Sequence record: PZ583742.1
Strand: one strand, 5' to 3'
DNA from: a phage
DNA: 64,000 nt
Each line of letters starts with the position of its first letter. The first letter of the stretch is position 1. Below the pieces are notes generated by a model that saw only the letters and a list, made by a program, of their open reading frames with translations, had not been told where the DNA came from and ran no database searches. The position numbers were made by a program, and so were the translations under genes. Of the stretch, positions 5,550 through 64,000 are shown in pieces.

Positions 5550-6136
5550 TGGCCCTTTATGAACCCGGGTGCATGGGTGTTGATGTAAACTTCATCCGCC
5601 GGGCAGAAAATGCGGGTATAATTGTATCAAGAGACGAATTTATGATTACCAAAAAATATTGGGCGAACCTTGATGATGGTGATGAAGGAATCAAGGTGGA
5701 AAATGTTGATTGGTCGCGATGCAATCGTCATGTGAAAGAGCTTTTAATTAAGGAATATAAAATGGGATACATCATTAATGGGCATCAACCAGAACCACTC
5801 AAAGAACAGACACCCGACCCATTAATTTCTTATAGCAAGAAATATGGATTTCGTACCTGGAGTGATGAATTTGATAAATTAATTTGTTCCAGGTTTTATG
5901 CCTGGGCTGGAATCTTATTTTTACCATTCCTGTGGTTTTTCCTGACAGGTAAAAATGAAGCACCTGTAGCTGTAATGGGCGCGTGCTTTTCTACTGCTCT
6001 TGCTGGACTTATTGCATCATTTTTATGGACTATGGTTATTGAAGTGCCTTTTCGTATTTCTAAAGTTAAAAAGGTGTACGACGATATCACTAAGAAAAAT
6101 ACATTGAACTCTTTTATTGAGGAATGCCGTAAATGA
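5549..6136 (+). CDS. membrane protein
   Basis: ATG overlaps upstream stop (TAATG); C-terminal hydrophobic segments; C-terminal SFIEEC tail. Confidence 0.5.
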   Translation: MALYEPGCMGVDVNFIRRAENAGIIVSRDEFMITKKYWANLDDGDEGIKVENVDWSRCNRHVKELLIKEYKMGYIINGHQPEPLKEQTPDPLISYSKKYGFRTWSDEFDKLICSRFYAWAGILFLPFLWFFLTGKNEAPVAVMGACFSTALAGLIASFLWTMVIEVPFRISKVKKVYDDITKKNTLNSFIEECRK

Positions 6137-25099: not shown

Positions 25100-25573
25100 A
25101 TGTTGTTGACTGGCAAATTATACAAAGAAGAAAAACAAAAACTTTATGATGCACAAGCTGGTAAGTGTCCAATTTGCCACCGTGATTTGGACTCTGATGT
25201 TCAGGCTAACCATCTTGACCATGACCACGAATTGAACGGACCAAAAGCCGGTAAGGTTCGCGGGTTACTATGCAATCTGTGCAATGGAACAGAAGGACAA
25301 ATGAAGCATAAGTTCAGCCGTTCGGGTCTAAAAAGTCGCGATGTTGACTACCTGGAATGGTTAGAGAGTTTGCTTGTCTATCTGAAATCTGATTATACCG
25401 AAAACAATATCCACCCTAATTTTGTAACAGACAAAGCCAAAGAGTTTGGTCGTCTGGGGAAAGAAGAAATGATTCGGGAAATGCTTTTGAATGGTATGAC
25501 TTATAATGAATCTGACACCAAAACACAATTAATGGCTTCATTTAAGAAGCAGCTTAGAAAGAGTTTAAAATGA
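25100..25573 (+). CDS. 49: endonuclease VII (Holliday junction resolvase)
   Basis: MLLTGKLYKEEKQK..GKCPICHRDL..HLDHDHELNGPKAGKVRGLLCNLCN..KKQLRKSLK is near-identical to T4 gp49. Confidence 0.95.
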   Translation: MLLTGKLYKEEKQKLYDAQAGKCPICHRDLDSDVQANHLDHDHELNGPKAGKVRGLLCNLCNGTEGQMKHKFSRSGLKSRDVDYLEWLESLLVYLKSDYTENNIHPNFVTDKAKEFGRLGKEEMIREMLLNGMTYNESDTKTQLMASFKKQLRKSLK

Positions 25574-35851: not shown

Positions 35852-35885
35852 TGCTTTAAACAAGGATGTTATAATAGAGGCTATT

Positions 35886-36509: not shown

Positions 36510-37393
36510 ATTTGATTTATAAAATAACCTTTATAACAAGGGAACAAAATAATGAATTCCCTTGTTATTATATTGGTTCAAAGGTTGATACGACATTTAA
36601 TGGCCAAAATATTCTCGATAAAAATAATAAAATTTATACAGGTTCTCCGAATTCAAAATATACTACGCTGTATAATGAATTAATTGATAGCGGTGACTAT
36701 ATTGTTACTATCATTGGGGAAACAAAACAGGACCCAAGGAAAATAGAAAATATTTTTCAAATGTCAGTTAAAGCTGTAACCAATGAGAAATACTTTAATA
36801 AAACGTATGCACACGACAAAAGCCGCTATGATGCTCCTGGATATGCTCCATACCGAAACTTGAAAACGGGTAAAGTTGTTAAATTACATCCATCTGAACT
36901 TACATCTGATTATGTTGGTGTTCGTAAAGATTGTTCAATTTCAGATAAGCACATTCAAGCAATTAAAGACTTCCAAAAAGAATATTGGACTGACGAAGCT
37001 CGACAAGCAAGGTCTGTTGAAGTCAAAAATCGTTATAAAGATGTTGAGTATGCTTTAAAATTCAAAGCTATAATGAATACATCTGAAGTATATGAAAAAT
37101 ATTTAAAATCAATTACTGAATATTGGAATAATTCAGATAATAGAATAAAGGCTTCAAAACGAGCAACCGAACGAAATGCCAACCCTGAATTTAAAGAAAA
37201 ATTTAGGAAATCTAAAGCAAGAGGAACCTGGTTACAGTATGAAGATGAACTTAAAGCATTGTGGAATGCTTTAGGCCAACCAGGGTATATTAAGTTTAGA
37301 AAACACGCCATTGAACATGGGTTTAATGATGAAAACTATCAGGGTGCAATCCGGTCCTGGTCAAATTATTATGTTAATAGGAAAATGAAATGA
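36506..37393 (+). CDS. GIY-YIG-like homing endonuclease (Seg-like), start uncertain
   Basis: From GTG 36506 the N-terminus is NLIYKITFITREQNNEFPCYYIGSK (GIY..YIG-like); basic C-terminal half; inserted between rpbA and 45, which are adjacent in T4; first in-frame ATG is far downstream. Confidence 0.5.
   Translation: MNLIYKITFITREQNNEFPCYYIGSKVDTTFNGQNILDKNNKIYTGSPNSKYTTLYNELIDSGDYIVTIIGETKQDPRKIENIFQMSVKAVTNEKYFNKTYAHDKSRYDAPGYAPYRNLKTGKVVKLHPSELTSDYVGVRKDCSISDKHIQAIKDFQKEYWTDEARQARSVEVKNRYKDVEYALKFKAIMNTSEVYEKYLKSITEYWNNSDNRIKASKRATERNANPEFKEKFRKSKARGTWLQYEDELKALWNALGQPGYIKFRKHAIEHGFNDENYQGAIRSWSNYYVNRKMK
36535..36566 (+). promoter_or_regulatory. perfect 10-bp inverted repeat (hairpin) inside the 5' end of the Seg-like ORF
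   Basis: aacaagggaa (36535-36544) / ttcccttgtt (36557-36566), 12-nt loop. Confidence 0.5.
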
Positions 37394-52802: not shown

Positions 52803-52886
52803 ACATCCCCCTTTCTTGTATTTATGCTTTAAACCAATACGATATAATTAACATACAAACAACATGAATTGATAAGGAAAAATATA

Positions 52887-61669: not shown

Positions 61670-62230
61670 ATGAAAGTTGAAGCTGGCGAAATCGTTCGCG
61701 TATCCAAAAAATCTCGTTCAAGAGCCGCTGGACGTTTTGTTGAGGTTGTCAGTATTCGTGCTGATATTTTTGTTGACCATCCTGATAATGAAGTAAAGGT
61801 GCGTATCATTCCCAAAAATGGTCAGACTGAAACTCAATTCGCTTATGTTCGTGCTAAATTCCTGGAATCAACTGCTATTACTGCCGCCAACCTCCCTGTG
61901 GTTGAAGAAGTTGAATCCCATGATGGATATGTGTGCGAAAGCAATGATATCCGTGGCGTAATTGCTCAAGACGTTGAAACCATTGACCAGTCTCATGTTG
62001 GGGTTGATTTTAAATGGAAATTGGGCAAAGGTGTCTTTTTTGTTTCACCTAAACCGTTTGAATATGTTGACGAACCTTTTGGTACTTATGAAACCACTAG
62101 CATGTCTGGTTACATCACAGACCAGTGGGTTGAAGAAGGCGTTAAGCTCTATAACATCGTGTTCCTTGGAACCTTTAAGGTGGTTCCTGAAAGCTTTATC
62201 GTTGAGTATGCTGATATTCATCGTGCCTAA
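61670..62230 (+). CDS. hypothetical protein, paralogue of 60838..61590
   Basis: C-terminus ITDQWVEEGVKLYNIVFLGTFKVVPESFIVE; downstream of TGTACA-N17-TATAAT promoter. Confidence 0.5.
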   Translation: MKVEAGEIVRVSKKSRSRAAGRFVEVVSIRADIFVDHPDNEVKVRIIPKNGQTETQFAYVRAKFLESTAITAANLPVVEEVESHDGYVCESNDIRGVIAQDVETIDQSHVGVDFKWKLGKGVFFVSPKPFEYVDEPFGTYETTSMSGYITDQWVEEGVKLYNIVFLGTFKVVPESFIVEYADIHRA

Positions 62231-62871: not shown

Positions 62872-63045
62872 ATGCCACTTTATGATTACAAATGTCAATC
62901 CAATGACTGCGCGAAAGAATACGAAAAAATCAAGAAAATCTCTGAAAGAGATAATGATGTTTGTCCTGATTGCCATCGGCTGGCTGTTCGGTTAGTCTCG
63001 GCTCCTAAACATGTTAATGGCGGTTTTTACGACCTTTTGAAGTGA
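62872..63045 (+). CDS. FmdB-like zinc-ribbon protein (57 aa)
   Basis: MPLYDYKCQSNDC..x..CPDCH: N-terminal MP.Y.Y.C..C plus second CxxC, typical of FmdB-family zinc ribbons; below ORF-track size cutoff. Confidence 0.45.
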   Translation: MPLYDYKCQSNDCAKEYEKIKKISERDNDVCPDCHRLAVRLVSAPKHVNGGFYDLLK

Positions 63046-63051
63046 GGATAT

Positions 63052-63312
63052 ATGAAATACATTAATCGTTCTATTGCAGCACTGGTACTGGCGGTTTCAT
63101 TGGCTAGTTGTACTGATGCAGATAATGCCATTCGTGTATTAGATGCAAACGGCTATGAACAAATCCAAATCACCGGTTATAACTGGTTGGGTTGCTCTGA
63201 AGATGATTTCCAACACACAGGCTTTACGGCCGTAGGGCCAACTGGTAAGAAAGTTAAAGGAACTGTTTGTTCTGGATTGCTGTTTAAGAATTCAACCATT
63301 CGATTTGAATAA
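63052..63312 (+). CDS. lipoprotein
   Basis: Signal peptide plus lipobox MKYINRSIAALVLAVSLASC; followed by UUCG-loop terminator. Confidence 0.5.
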   Translation: MKYINRSIAALVLAVSLASCTDADNAIRVLDANGYEQIQITGYNWLGCSEDDFQHTGFTAVGPTGKKVKGTVCSGLLFKNSTIRFE

Positions 63313-63329
63313 GGCCTTCGGGCCTTTTT
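63313..63329 (+). terminator. rho-independent terminator
   Basis: ggcc-ttcg-ggcc followed by TTTTT. Confidence 0.6.
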
Positions 63330-63354
63330 GCTTTAAAATATGTGACTTATAATA
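63327..63354 (+). promoter_or_regulatory. middle-promoter-like element (MotA box TTTGCTTTA plus TATAAT)
   Basis: TTTGCTTTA 63327-63335, TATAAT 63348-63353; directly after terminator hairpin. Confidence 0.45.
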
Positions 63355-63359
63355 CCTCC

Positions 63360-64000
63360 ATGAACTTAAAACAATTTATTGAAGAAAATCTTTTAACTAA
63401 GAACCCGAATCGTCTTAACGGTAATTTGTTCAAAAATGATTTAGAATTTGCCAAGAAATTCTGGGAAAAATATCCAGAAGAAGCAAATGTCTTTAGAACA
63501 GAAGCACTGCATTGTCAAGGAGGTAAAAGAGACCAACATCCGTACAATGAGGTCTGCTACCGTATTTTACATGATATAAAAGGAAAAGTCTTATGTAAGT
63601 GTGGTAAACCTGTTAACTATCATACATTTGCTACTGGCTACCATGAATTTTGTTCCGTTAAATGTCAGGGTGGTGGTATATTTGAAGAAGAGCGTATTTG
63701 TCCTGTTTGCGATACTAAGTATATGGCTACGAATAGGACTCAAAAATATTGTTCAGATTCCTGTGGTAAAGAAGCAAGAGATACTCAATCACTGGACTTG
63801 CCATATAGTCATTCCATAAAGATGAAAAAGCGCGACGTTTTGAAGTTAATTGAGGATACTCCGTATTGTGAAATTTGTAAAATAAAACTAACAAACAATT
63901 CGACTTCTTTATCAAAAAGCACTTGGTTCAATGTAGACCATTGCCACTCGACTGGTAAAGTCCGAGGTATTTTATGTTCAAAATGCAACATAGGCCTAGG
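63360..64000 (+). CDS. zinc-ribbon / endonuclease VII-like His-Me finger protein, 3'-truncated at window edge
   Basis: Frame is open from ATG 63360 to the window end (not in ORF track because no stop); several CxxC pairs; C-terminal VDHCHSTGKVRGILCSKCN parallels the gp49 HLDHDHELNGPKAGKVRGLLCNLCN motif. Confidence 0.55.
   Translation, partial: MNLKQFIEENLLTKNPNRLNGNLFKNDLEFAKKFWEKYPEEANVFRTEALHCQGGKRDQHPYNEVCYRILHDIKGKVLCKCGKPVNYHTFATGYHEFCSVKCQGGGIFEEERICPVCDTKYMATNRTQKYCSDSCGKEARDTQSLDLPYSHSIKMKKRDVLKLIEDTPYCEICKIKLTNNSTSLSKSTWFNVDHCHSTGKVRGILCSKCNIGL

Follow-up and report, generated by a model that had tools for sequence, protein, structure and literature searches.

A probable free-standing homing endonuclease gene with an endonuclease VII motif in the gene 39 leader of a T4-type phage

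The window, that is, the whole stretch of 64,000 nucleotides that was analysed (record PZ583742.1), is from a Gaprivervirus, a T4-type phage, and its right-hand end is occupied by an open reading frame (ORF) that lies between the terminator of gene 39.1 and the start of gene 39, outside any intron or intein and as a gene of its own. Gene 39 encodes the large subunit of topoisomerase II, a GyrB homologue. The features at this locus, together with gene 49 as a comparator, are listed below.

25100..25573, + strand: gene 49, the canonical endonuclease VII resolvase (phrog_423), outside the element.
63311..63330, + strand: intrinsic terminator hairpin AAGGCC-TTCG-GGCCTT and a T run, after gene 39.1 (terminator scan).
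63327..63353, + strand: putative T4-type MotA-dependent middle promoter (TTTGCTTTA, 12 nt, TATAAT; pattern search with the T4 consensus).
63360..64000, + strand: endonuclease ORF, truncated by the window end after residue 213 of about 235 (Pfam, relatives, dN/dS).
63360..63524, + strand: N-terminal helical region, residues 1-55, specific to a small clade of T4-type phage proteins (AF2, homologue search).
63361..63362, + strand: left insertion junction, with sequence shared with empty-site phages (…TATAATACCTCCAT) up to 63361 and insert-specific sequence from 63362.
63531..63668, + strand: helix and zinc ribbon 1, residues 58-103 (C79, C81, C98, C102; 'NEvCYRIlhDI…C.C…Y.tF..GYh.FCS.kC'; phmmer).
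63699..63764, + strand: zinc ribbon 2, residues 114-135 (C114, C117, C131, C135; CPVC…YCSDSC; BLASTP against the Yepe2 intron ORF).
63852..64000, + strand: nuclease domain of the Endo VII / DHHRN type with a predicted ββα-Me fold, residues 165-235, of which 165-213 lie in the window (PF02945, Hpy99I alignment).
63936-38, 63939-41, 63945-47, 63963-65 and 63987-89, + strand: codons of the motif residues D193, H194, H196, R202 and N210, respectively.

The initial annotation had described a frame that was open from ATG 63360 to the window end and absent from the ORF track. Translation gave 213 sense codons (63360-64000) with no stop before the window end, and the only reason for the absence is that the ORF runs off the window. 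The nearest in-frame stop on the 5' side is TGA 63306-63308, and ATG 63360 is conserved in relatives. The upstream start annotated in phage VR26 (MRPSG…) was rejected because its codon is ATA in the window and ATG 63360 is common to all lineages. The counterpart in phage vB_EcoM_RZ (RZ), whose DNA is 95% identical to that of the window over the 1.2 kb compared, is a complete ORF of 235 amino acids that differs at 1 amino acid over 213 residues and has its stop 6 nt before gene 39; therefore, about 22 codons are missing from the window's ORF. These 22 codons are expected to end in …GMFKDNIASLETAIEYLKQSKE and a stop, and every close relative has an intact ORF of 231-241 amino acids.

The residues seen in the window terminate in VDHCHSTGKVRGILCSKCNIGL and contain Cys pairs at C79/C81, C98/C102, C114/C117, C131/C135, C170/C173 and C206/C209. 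The motif VDHCHSTGKVRGILCSKCN lies at 63933-63989, and D193, H194, H196, R202, N210 and the four zinc cysteines C170, C173, C206 and C209, which are the structural Zn ligands of the nuclease domain, are all inside the window. The order CX2-4C … D-H-x-H … R … CX2C-N, which defines the DHHRN motif (PMC6083498), is complete in the ORF, and the DHHRN residues and the four cysteines are invariant across 9 family sequences. The truncated fragment matched Pfam PF02945 (Endonuclease_7) at 42.2 bits (E=7.5e-11; cut-off 23.6), and the full-length RZ protein matched it at 65.2 bits (E=5e-18), with the domain at residues 165-231 of 235. On these profile scores the Endo VII resemblance is beyond chance, and the alignment shows every catalytic and zinc residue intact in a bona fide PF02945 protein. 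The earlier proposals that several Cys pairs and a motif parallel gp49, which contains the quoted HLDHDHELNGPKAGKVRGLLCNLCN exactly, and that the window encodes a second Endo VII-type nuclease besides gene 49 were thus both upheld, the latter by a PF02945 match obtained even with the fragment.

A phmmer search against the Hpy99I structure 3fc3 gave E=7e-8, with D193/H194/N210 aligned with D148/H149/N165, and Foldseek against BFVD returned 30 matches at E<=1e-3, most of which carry the name of an Endo VII or an HNH nuclease. The AF2 model of the nuclease domain was of moderate confidence (pLDDT 51-72), and a Foldseek search of the PDB with the complete model had no significant match, the only one being a sub-threshold similarity to YacG. 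No NCBIfam family was found with the ORF protein. A classical HNH nuclease (Pfam PF01844 type) was rejected, as no HNH family appeared in Pfam at E<=1; a weak match to an 'HNH endonuclease' PHROG was seen (phrog_36860, E=3.4e-5), and the DHHRN proteins have been set apart from HNH on the basis of the central Asn and the HNH model (Fang et al. 2018).

With gp49 the ORF protein shares its catalytic core and zinc site (CxxC…DH.H…R…CxxCN). This likeness, together with the presence of resolvases in the same Pfam family, is what would favor a second Holliday-junction resolvase or DNA repair nuclease, a functional paralogue of gp49 with branched DNA as its substrate. We regard this reading as highly improbable. 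BLASTP of the ORF against the window's gp49 gave E=4e-5 over 59 aligned columns, and the comparison with T4 Endo VII gave E=0.3. While gp49 matches phrog_423 over its full length (profile positions 4-159, E=4e-59), the ORF matches the same profile at positions 23-74 of 159 only. In gp49 the motif is N-terminal and is followed by a C-terminal half; the ORF protein ends about 25 residues past N210, so that half is absent, and its motif sits at the C-terminus, where the endonuclease clade of Fang et al. (2018) also has it. Moreover, gp49, which this phage already has, is a structure-specific resolvase encoded by a core gene, whereas the ORF is not a core gene in T4-type phages and is missing from most close relatives. 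Membership in the gp49-type resolvases was rejected on these two grounds, the lack of full-length similarity and the lack of core-gene conservation. [quoted passage not shown]

F-CphI of cyanophage S-PM2, an experimentally active free-standing homing endonuclease in which D, H, R and N are essential by mutagenesis (PMC6083498), is likewise encoded by a free-standing gene of a T4-type phage and has a C-terminal Endo VII motif. BLASTP against it gave E=2e-12, with 54% identity over the 41-residue catalytic core and following helix. However, F-CphI has 142 amino acids, against 235 for the ORF, and is without the N-terminal helical region and the two FCS-type ribbons; it also adjoins psbA and targets a psbA intron-insertion site, while the ORF goes with gene 39. 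The Yepe2 intron ORF is 35% identical over residues 106-230 of the ORF (125 amino acids, E=2e-20) and shares zinc ribbon 2, the linker, the nuclease domain, PF02945 and the top PHROGs, but it lies inside a split DNA-polymerase gene (annotated as joined) and is without residues 1-105. No group I intron was found at the Yepe2 DNA-polymerase locus with Rfam at the gathering threshold, and its intron status therefore rests on the joined-CDS annotation and the literature. Hpy99I (PDB 3fc3) is the best solved relative across the zinc and ββα-Me region and has the tail '…GLG.FKDN……IEYLK' in common with the ORF. It differs in that it is a type II enzyme that is dimeric, recognizes a 5-bp site, has an N-terminal β-barrel domain and is paired with a methylase; the ORF shows none of these features.

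The N-terminal region was modeled by AF2 as helices 3-11, 21-24, 29-37 and 39-49 (pLDDT 83-92), and only about 8 full-length homologues were found among 5.8 billion proteins. The ribbon 1 module was recovered by exhaustive phmmer searches in 2-7 copies in proteins of 400-900 amino acids, in tandem beside other nuclease domains. When ten of these tandem-ribbon proteins were scanned against Pfam, three matched DUF7487 and one matched DUF559, and four of five scanned against PHROGs matched phrog_3339 'homing endonuclease', which the window's ORF itself also matches (E=2.4e-5). The helix and zinc ribbon 1 are presumed to form a DNA-recognition module. Ribbon 2 is common to the ORF and the intron-borne ORF of T7-like Yersinia phages.

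Matches of the ORF to the gyrase inhibitor YacG were all below threshold (Pfam 14.7-14.9 bits against a cut-off of 25.5; Foldseek 4tma_K, probability 0.77, E=1.6), and membership in that family was rejected in the absence of a Pfam score above threshold or a significant fold match. These weak similarities and the invariable adjacency of gene 39 would fit a topoisomerase modulator whose YacG-like zinc ribbons bind gp39, the GyrB homologue encoded by the next gene. We give this hardly any credence: besides the sub-threshold scores, the ribbon module is also found in proteins without any relation to topoisomerases, where tandem arrays of it are joined to other nuclease domains, ribbon 2 also occurs in the intron ORF of a DNA-polymerase gene, and the adjacency is explained by homing. 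A broader form, in which the YacG/FCS-like ribbons, the gene 39 adjacency and the strong selection on the ORF reflect a co-opted regulator that engages the phage topoisomerase or gene 39 expression, perhaps made from a leaderless MotA-dependent middle transcript, is also very unlikely. In a milder version, residues 58-103 could define a modular, nuclease-associated zinc-ribbon DNA-binding domain that is not yet in Pfam and is common to DHHRN, DUF559 and DUF7487 nucleases.

The left insertion junction could be placed to the base. Across the junction, the empty-site phages P8 and SP18 read …ACCTCCAT followed directly by ACACAAGAGGAAAGATGATG (gene 39), while the window, RZ, VR26 and VR7 read …ACCTCCAT followed by GAACTTAAAA. 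The left side is thus identical in four genomes with the endonuclease gene and two without it, and it lies inside the gene 39 leader. The shared sequence ends at 63361, and thus the start codon consists of 'AT' from the host sequence and 'G' from the insert. The terminator hairpin is identical in P8, SP18, RZ, VR26 and VR7, with or without the endonuclease gene. The putative MotA-type promoter was called by its match to the established consensus of T4 middle promoters. The window has 4 occurrences of the pattern TGCTTYA-N11-13-TATAAT, always on the + strand, against 0.06 expected, and by the empty-site comparison the same putative promoter would serve gene 39 in endonuclease-free relatives. 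A sigma-70 scan found no promoter on the + strand, because MotA-type promoters are outside the model of the scan. Within the endonuclease gene, no gene 39 promoter was detected except a weak 9/12 match (RZ 5659-5687).

The -10 box of the middle promoter ends 6 nt before the ATG, and no Shine-Dalgarno sequence precedes ATG 63360, the preceding bases being ACCTCC. Middle transcripts may therefore be leaderless or start inside the ORF, and with this arrangement expression is probably low. The predicted RNA fold of 63300-63440 was no stabler than those of shuffled sequences (z=-0.55), and thus, apart from the terminator itself, gave no evidence of a hairpin that would mask the start codon. In these respects the gene resembles MobA and the Seg-type endonuclease genes of T4, which are intergenic and sporadic, target a conserved neighbor, have poor translation signals and displace the promoter of the neighbor, although they belong to other nuclease families (classical HNH and GIY-YIG); T4 MobA targets gene 39 (PMC2988022).

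Every homologue for which the context was read, in six phage genomes or metagenome contigs (Gaprivervirus, Krischvirus and uncultured T4-like phages), adjoins gene 39 directly upstream. The site is occupied in the window, RZ, VR26, TH15 and VR7 and is without the endonuclease gene in P8, SP18, RB49 and G37-3, with another ORF there in SP18. Most genomes of Gaprivervirus and Krischvirus are without the gene, which is present in 13 of 59 Krischvirus records, and among 50,697 phage records the window's allele was found only in RZ, VR26 and TH15. P479 has a Seg-like GIY-YIG endonuclease gene at this very position; within the window, no GIY-YIG-like ORF turned up in a regex scan.

The upstream flank is mostly 80-100% identical to that of phages without the endonuclease gene, except for an unrelated mosaic patch in a MotB-like gene. 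Over nucleotides 1-1140 of gene 39, identity between Gapriverviruses that have the endonuclease gene and those that lack it is 42-90% per 60-nt segment (mostly 60-80%), and thereafter it is 88-100%; this evidence comes from relatives, since the window's own gene 39 starts past 64000. The foreign 5' tract measures about 1140 nt in RZ and VR26, about 720 nt in Krischvirus and about 57 nt in VR7. The 1140-nt boundary common to RZ and VR26 points to one ancestral acquisition, an event that could equally have come about by ordinary homologous recombination among divergent phages.

The predicted proteins closest to the ORF, VR7 gp6 (VR7ORF006c, YP_004063687), RZ gp033 and VR26 gp006, are annotated 'endonuclease VII' and share the 39.1/39 locus, the left junction and the domain order. 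VR7 gp6 is about 49% identical to the window's ORF, and it goes with a foreign gene 39 tract far shorter than that to which the window's allele is tied in its closest relatives. VR7 gp6 has been predicted to be a free-standing homing endonuclease of the DHHRN family (Fang et al. 2018), and a literature search on VR7, homing endonuclease and topoisomerase found nothing specific.

The ORF is under strong purifying selection, with dN/dS values of 0.01 against RZ and 0.06 against VR26 and a single amino acid change from RZ despite a synonymous divergence of 0.19. Homing endonuclease genes commonly degenerate after fixation, and the window's gene could be the decaying or inactive relic of a mobile element, devoid of any activity today, as an internally deleted copy in another lineage (P0014) and the missing Shine-Dalgarno sequence might suggest. 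With these dN/dS values and with the catalytic and zinc residues all intact, we consider such a remnant extremely improbable. The selection is stronger than for a purely selfish, decaying homing endonuclease gene, so the protein may also benefit the phage.

A related reading, which we consider unlikely, is that of a phage-beneficial nuclease directed against co-infecting phages or host DNA, a restriction-like enzyme related to Hpy99I for which mobility is secondary. The kinship with Hpy99I and the strong selection are in line with it, and G37-3 keeps the linked gene 39 allele without the endonuclease gene, as expected if the allele confers resistance. However, no methyltransferase partner lies next to the endonuclease gene in the RZ, VR26 and VR7 contexts, and the strict linkage to one locus with co-transferred gene 39 tracts is what homing predicts. 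Competitive exclusion is a known by-product of homing endonucleases, and the restriction-like reading is an addition to homing more than an alternative to it.

Taken together, the ORF is, with a probability of roughly 0.8, a free-standing homing endonuclease gene of the Endo VII-motif ('DHHRN') family in the gene 39 leader of a Gaprivervirus. The initial annotation had left the function between a homing endonuclease and a repair enzyme. The evidence favors the former because of the sporadic presence at one fixed locus, the base-precise junction, the foreign gene 39 tracts, the kinship with F-CphI and intron ORFs and the published VR7 prediction; the repair enzyme fell away with the missing gp49 C-terminal half and the lack of core-gene status. 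If the protein is a homing endonuclease, its N-terminal helix and zinc ribbons would recognize a long DNA site that lies within, or immediately ahead of, the 5' end of gene 39 in a co-infecting phage without the endonuclease gene, and its C-terminal ββα-Me site would cut or nick the DNA, with H194 as the general base, D193 and N210 holding Mg2+ and R202 contacting DNA. T4-type recombination-dependent repair would then copy the endonuclease gene and a variable stretch of donor gene 39 into the broken genome. The donor would be protected because the insertion, the divergent gene 39 sequence or both presumably destroy the site. Cleavage, the target site and super-Mendelian inheritance are predictions for the clade as a whole.

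The ORF is an ordinary member of an already described kind of gene, and its value lies mostly in annotation: the gp49 resolvase and a probable homing endonuclease share a catalytic motif and should be kept apart instead of both being called 'endonuclease VII'. The locus also illustrates cleanly, in nature, how free-standing endonuclease genes reshape an essential gene: one landing site is used by a GIY-YIG gene and by three lineages of a family unrelated to it, the Endo VII type, and the imported stretch of gene 39 has a different length in each of these three lineages. It thereby adds to the known MobA / gene 60 story of the T4 topoisomerase. If a long target site were mapped, the protein would be the second characterized DHHRN homing endonuclease and possibly a rare-cutting nuclease.

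The initial annotation described an endonuclease VII (Endo VII)-like ORF that stays open from the ATG at 63360 to the window end and carries several Cys pairs, and this description was borne out: translation of 63360-64000 (+) gave 213 sense codons without a stop, and the peptide contains six Cys pairs (C79/C81, C98/C102, C114/C117, C131/C135, C170/C173, and C206/C209) and terminates in VDHCHSTGKVRGILCSKCNIGL within the window. ATG 63360 is the start codon common to all related genes, and the nearest in-frame stop upstream is the TGA at 63306-63308. Even when truncated, the ORF scored above the cut-off for Pfam PF02945 (Endonuclease_7; 42.2 bits, E=7.5e-11, cut-off 23.6), and thus its resemblance to Endo VII is not due to chance. 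Over its final 1.2 kb, the window shares 95% identity with Escherichia phage vB_EcoM_RZ and 89% with VR26, both of them Gapriverviruses (Straboviridae, Tevenvirinae), and the ORF is flanked by dda, dexA, motB-like genes, cef, goF, 39.2, and 39.1, with transcription running left to right. Its RZ counterpart differs by 1 amino acid over the 213 residues in the window and is 235 aa in full, so that about 22 codons are missing from the window; the RZ stop lies 6 nt ahead of the ATG of gene 39 (topoisomerase II large subunit). The full-length RZ protein matched PF02945 at residues 165-231 with 65.2 bits (E=5e-18). All of the family-defining residues, namely, the zinc ligands C170, C173, C206, and C209 and the DHHRN residues D193, H194, H196, R202, and N210, are inside the window. 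Of the upstream neighbors, gene 39.2 (62872-63045) encodes a 57-aa FmdB-like CxxC…CxxC zinc-ribbon protein, and gene 39.1 (63052-63312) appears to encode a small lipoprotein whose signal peptide ends in LASC.

Features of the window cited in the text
25100-25573, + strand, gene 49, containing HLDHDHELNGPKAGKVRGLLCNLCN
35852-35875, 37051-37074, 52825-52848, and 63329-63353, + strand, four perfect MotA-box motifs (TGCTTTA-N11-13-TATAAT)
63311-63326, + strand, terminator, from the terminator scan
63327-63353, + strand, perfect T4 middle-promoter motif TTTGCTTTA-N12-TATAAT, following the terminator

The gp49 sequence with which the ORF had been compared was found verbatim in gene 49. PF02945-type proteins form two clades, resolvases with an N-terminal motif, including gp49, and endonucleases with a C-terminal motif (PMC6083498). 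Gp49 matched PHROG 423 across its whole 157 aa (E=4e-59), whereas the match of the ORF was limited to positions 23-74 of the 159-position profile and its top PHROGs were 2633 and 2914; by BLASTP, the two proteins aligned over 59 columns (E=4e-5). Judged from sequence, the ORF protein does not have the architecture of a gp49 paralogue, and three other proteins are much nearer to it. The first is F-CphI, the free-standing homing endonuclease of cyanophage S-PM2, in which the catalytic core and the helix after it are 54% identical to those of the ORF protein (E=2e-12). The second is the 144-aa product of an ORF located within the split DNA-polymerase gene of Yepe2, a T7-like Yersinia phage. It is 35% identical across 125 aa (E=2e-20), belongs to PF02945 itself (E=4e-23), and shares its top PHROGs with the window ORF. 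The third, Hpy99I, is the best relative with a solved structure (E=7e-8, versus 0.3 for T4 Endo VII), and D193, H194, and N210 of the ORF align with its metal ligand D148, general base H149, and second metal ligand N165. This group is the "DHHRN" homing-endonuclease family of Fang et al. 2018 (PMC6083498), whose mutagenesis of F-CphI showed its D, H, R, and N residues to be essential. The same study predicted that VR7 gp6, an orthologue at the same locus with roughly 49% identity, is a free-standing homing endonuclease, and the homing-endonuclease option of the initial annotation coincides with this prediction. The repair-enzyme option fared worse: a resolvase or repair paralogue of gp49 is very improbable, as the C-terminal half present in gp49 is missing, the motif is C-terminal, and the distribution is sporadic.

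Gene 39 was immediately downstream of every homologue whose context was read (RZ, VR26, and VR7 of Gaprivervirus, JK32 of Krischvirus, and three metagenomic T4-type contigs). In Yersinia phage P8, gene 39 directly follows 39.1 and the site is empty; in SP18, the site holds an unrelated ORF of 132 aa. A search of 50,697 phage records found the window's allele only in RZ, VR26, and TH15; in Krischvirus, the gene was present in 13 of the 59 matching records, and RB49, Phi1, and JSE are without it. Occupied and empty genomes share the 39.1 terminator, the MotA box, the -10 box, and then …ACCTCCAT, after which empty sites read ACACAAGAGGAAAGATGATG (gene 39) and occupied sites read GAACTTAAAA. In these alignments the left junction is base-precise, and thus the ATG of the ORF consists of a host "AT" and a "G" from the insert. 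Some Gapriverviruses have an extra ORF of 132-137 aa (RB69ORF005c-like, weak FRD2 hit) between 39.1 and the terminator/promoter (L004:4524-4922 in SP18 and L001:4509-4922 in RZ); the window lacks it between 63312 and 63327, and it gives the locus a second indel polymorphism that is independent of the first. At exactly the same 39.1|39 site, Escherichia phage P479 carries a gene (L017:1152-1949) for a 265-aa GIY-YIG, I-TevI-type endonuclease matching Pfam PF01541 (2e-11), the I-TevI DNA-binding domain, and NUMOD3, and so two unrelated endonuclease families share one landing site. The P479 gene is linked to yet another 5' allele of gene 39 (80.7% identity to the RZ type). HNH or GIY-YIG genes also adjoin gene 39 in Klebsiella T4-likes, and gene 39 is given as the target of T4 MobA (PMC2988022).

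Synonymous divergence between the window ORF and RZ was 0.19, with one amino acid change, and dN/dS was 0.01 versus RZ and 0.06 versus VR26. By these substitution ratios, the gene is under purifying selection and is not decaying. An inactive remnant of a mobile element, which the ratios contradict, is therefore extremely improbable. Decay is what the Krischvirus-type homologue P0014 (180 aa) looks like, with an internal deletion relative to P0013 (242 aa) that removes zinc ribbon 2 and the first nuclease-domain CxxC. A nuclease retained for competition or a restriction-like role, which would add to homing rather than replace it, fits both the strong purifying selection and the similarity to Hpy99I, but we consider it unlikely.

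Gene 39 of the window genome lies beyond the window, and the evidence for co-conversion was drawn from relatives, with identities counted per 60-nt window. Between Gapriverviruses with (RZ and VR26) and without (SP18 and P8) the endonuclease gene, nt 1-1140 of gene 39 were 42-90% identical, mostly 60-80%, and identity then jumped abruptly to 88-100%. The RZ/VR26-type 5' allele occurred at high identity only in phages carrying the gene. The upstream flank of the window was mostly 80-100% identical to phages without it, apart from an unrelated mosaic patch at 61696-62100 in a MotB-like gene (61670-62230). This patch is 100% identical to RZ and about 70-93% identical to SP18, P8, VR7, and VR26, with adjacent segments mostly at 85-100% identity. 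In VR7, the divergent stretch of gene 39 linked to the variant gene covers only about 57 nt and is largely synonymous, and in Krischvirus the tract measures about 720 nt; on sequence comparison, at least three acquisition events are implied by these three different lengths. The boundary shared by RZ and VR26 points to one ancestral event, which ordinary recombination could also explain in principle. Krischvirus G37-3 (L008:1899-3722), without the endonuclease gene, keeps the linked allele, its gene 39 being mostly 95-100% identical to that of JK32, which has the gene, versus 57-90% to RB49 over the first ~720 nt; either the gene was lost or a resistant allele would exist without it.

The motif TGCTTYA-N11-13-TATAAT occurs 4 times in the window (chance expectation, 0.06), always on the + strand. 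In empty-site phages, the middle promoter predicted from the copy at 63327-63353 would drive gene 39 by way of a short leader containing GAGG. At the occupied site, the -10 box ends 6 nt upstream of ATG 63360, and ACCTCC (63354-63359) directly precedes the ATG, leaving no Shine-Dalgarno sequence there; ACCTCC instead resembles the 16S rRNA anti-Shine-Dalgarno. From the usual -10-to-start distance, transcription would start at or beside the ATG, so that middle transcripts would be leaderless or begin inside the ORF, and only read-through early transcripts would carry it with any leader. The metagenomic lineage L013 has the same -10-to-ATG geometry with a different spacer. Folding supported no start-masking RNA structure near the ORF start, and a strong AAGGAGGT inside the ORF (63517-63524) is followed by no start codon. 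In occupied genomes, the 3' end of the endonuclease gene supplies gene 39 with a new AAGGA ribosome-binding site. T4 free-standing endonuclease genes typically have weak or odd translation signals and displace the promoter of their neighbor (PMC2988022).

An AlphaFold2 model of P0001, a full-length homologue with 91% identity (9 aligned sequences, mean pLDDT 76), has a confident helical N terminus (residues 1-55), a helix and zinc ribbon (58-103), another ribbon (114-135), and a linker made of helices. After the linker, modeled with lower confidence (pLDDT 51-72), come a β-β-α unit (β189-195, β201-203, and α207-216) and a terminal helix. Foldseek comparison with the PDB was uninformative, and against BFVD it gave 30 hits at E<=1e-3, chiefly viral "endonuclease VII" or HNH models. 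In an exhaustive phmmer search with residues 1-110, only a few T4-type phage proteins contained the whole N-terminal region. Residues ~58-103 (helix and C-x-C…FCSxxC ribbon; 63531-63668), for which Pfam has no model, recur as 2-7 tandem copies in proteins of 400-900 aa, with arrays in the proteins P0017, P0019-P0021, and P0032. Ten of the multicopy proteins were scanned against Pfam, with matches to DUF7487 in three and DUF559 in one, and five against PHROGs, with matches to the "homing endonuclease" phrog_3339 in four. On these matches, the ribbon is a modular unit associated with nucleases, whose most plausible role is to recognize DNA. A YacG-like topoisomerase modulator would be suggested only by the adjacency to gene 39 and by YacG hits, all sub-threshold (Pfam, 14.7-14.9 bits versus a cut-off of 25.5; Foldseek, E=1.6), and we regard it as scarcely credible.

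Family membership, the intact active site, purifying selection, the sporadic distribution at one locus, the precise junction, and the foreign gene-39 tracts linked to the gene together argue that the ORF is a free-standing DHHRN homing endonuclease gene (probability of roughly 0.8). A near-identical protein is already in GenBank as "endonuclease VII," and the family and likely role have been published; the junction, tract lengths, shared landing site, selection values, promoter geometry, and modular ribbon are new. As a homing endonuclease, the protein would use its ribbon modules to read a long site in a coinfecting endonuclease-free phage, located at the conserved 5' end of gene 39 or shortly before it, in the region encoding the …KR(S/P)GMYIG… motif; a target that falls in the first ~60 nt of gene 39 or directly upstream of them is somewhat favored. 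The ββα-Me site would nick or cut the DNA with Mg2+, and recombination-dependent repair would copy the endonuclease gene and a variable length of donor gene 39 to the recipient, while the donor would escape because its own site is split or recoded.
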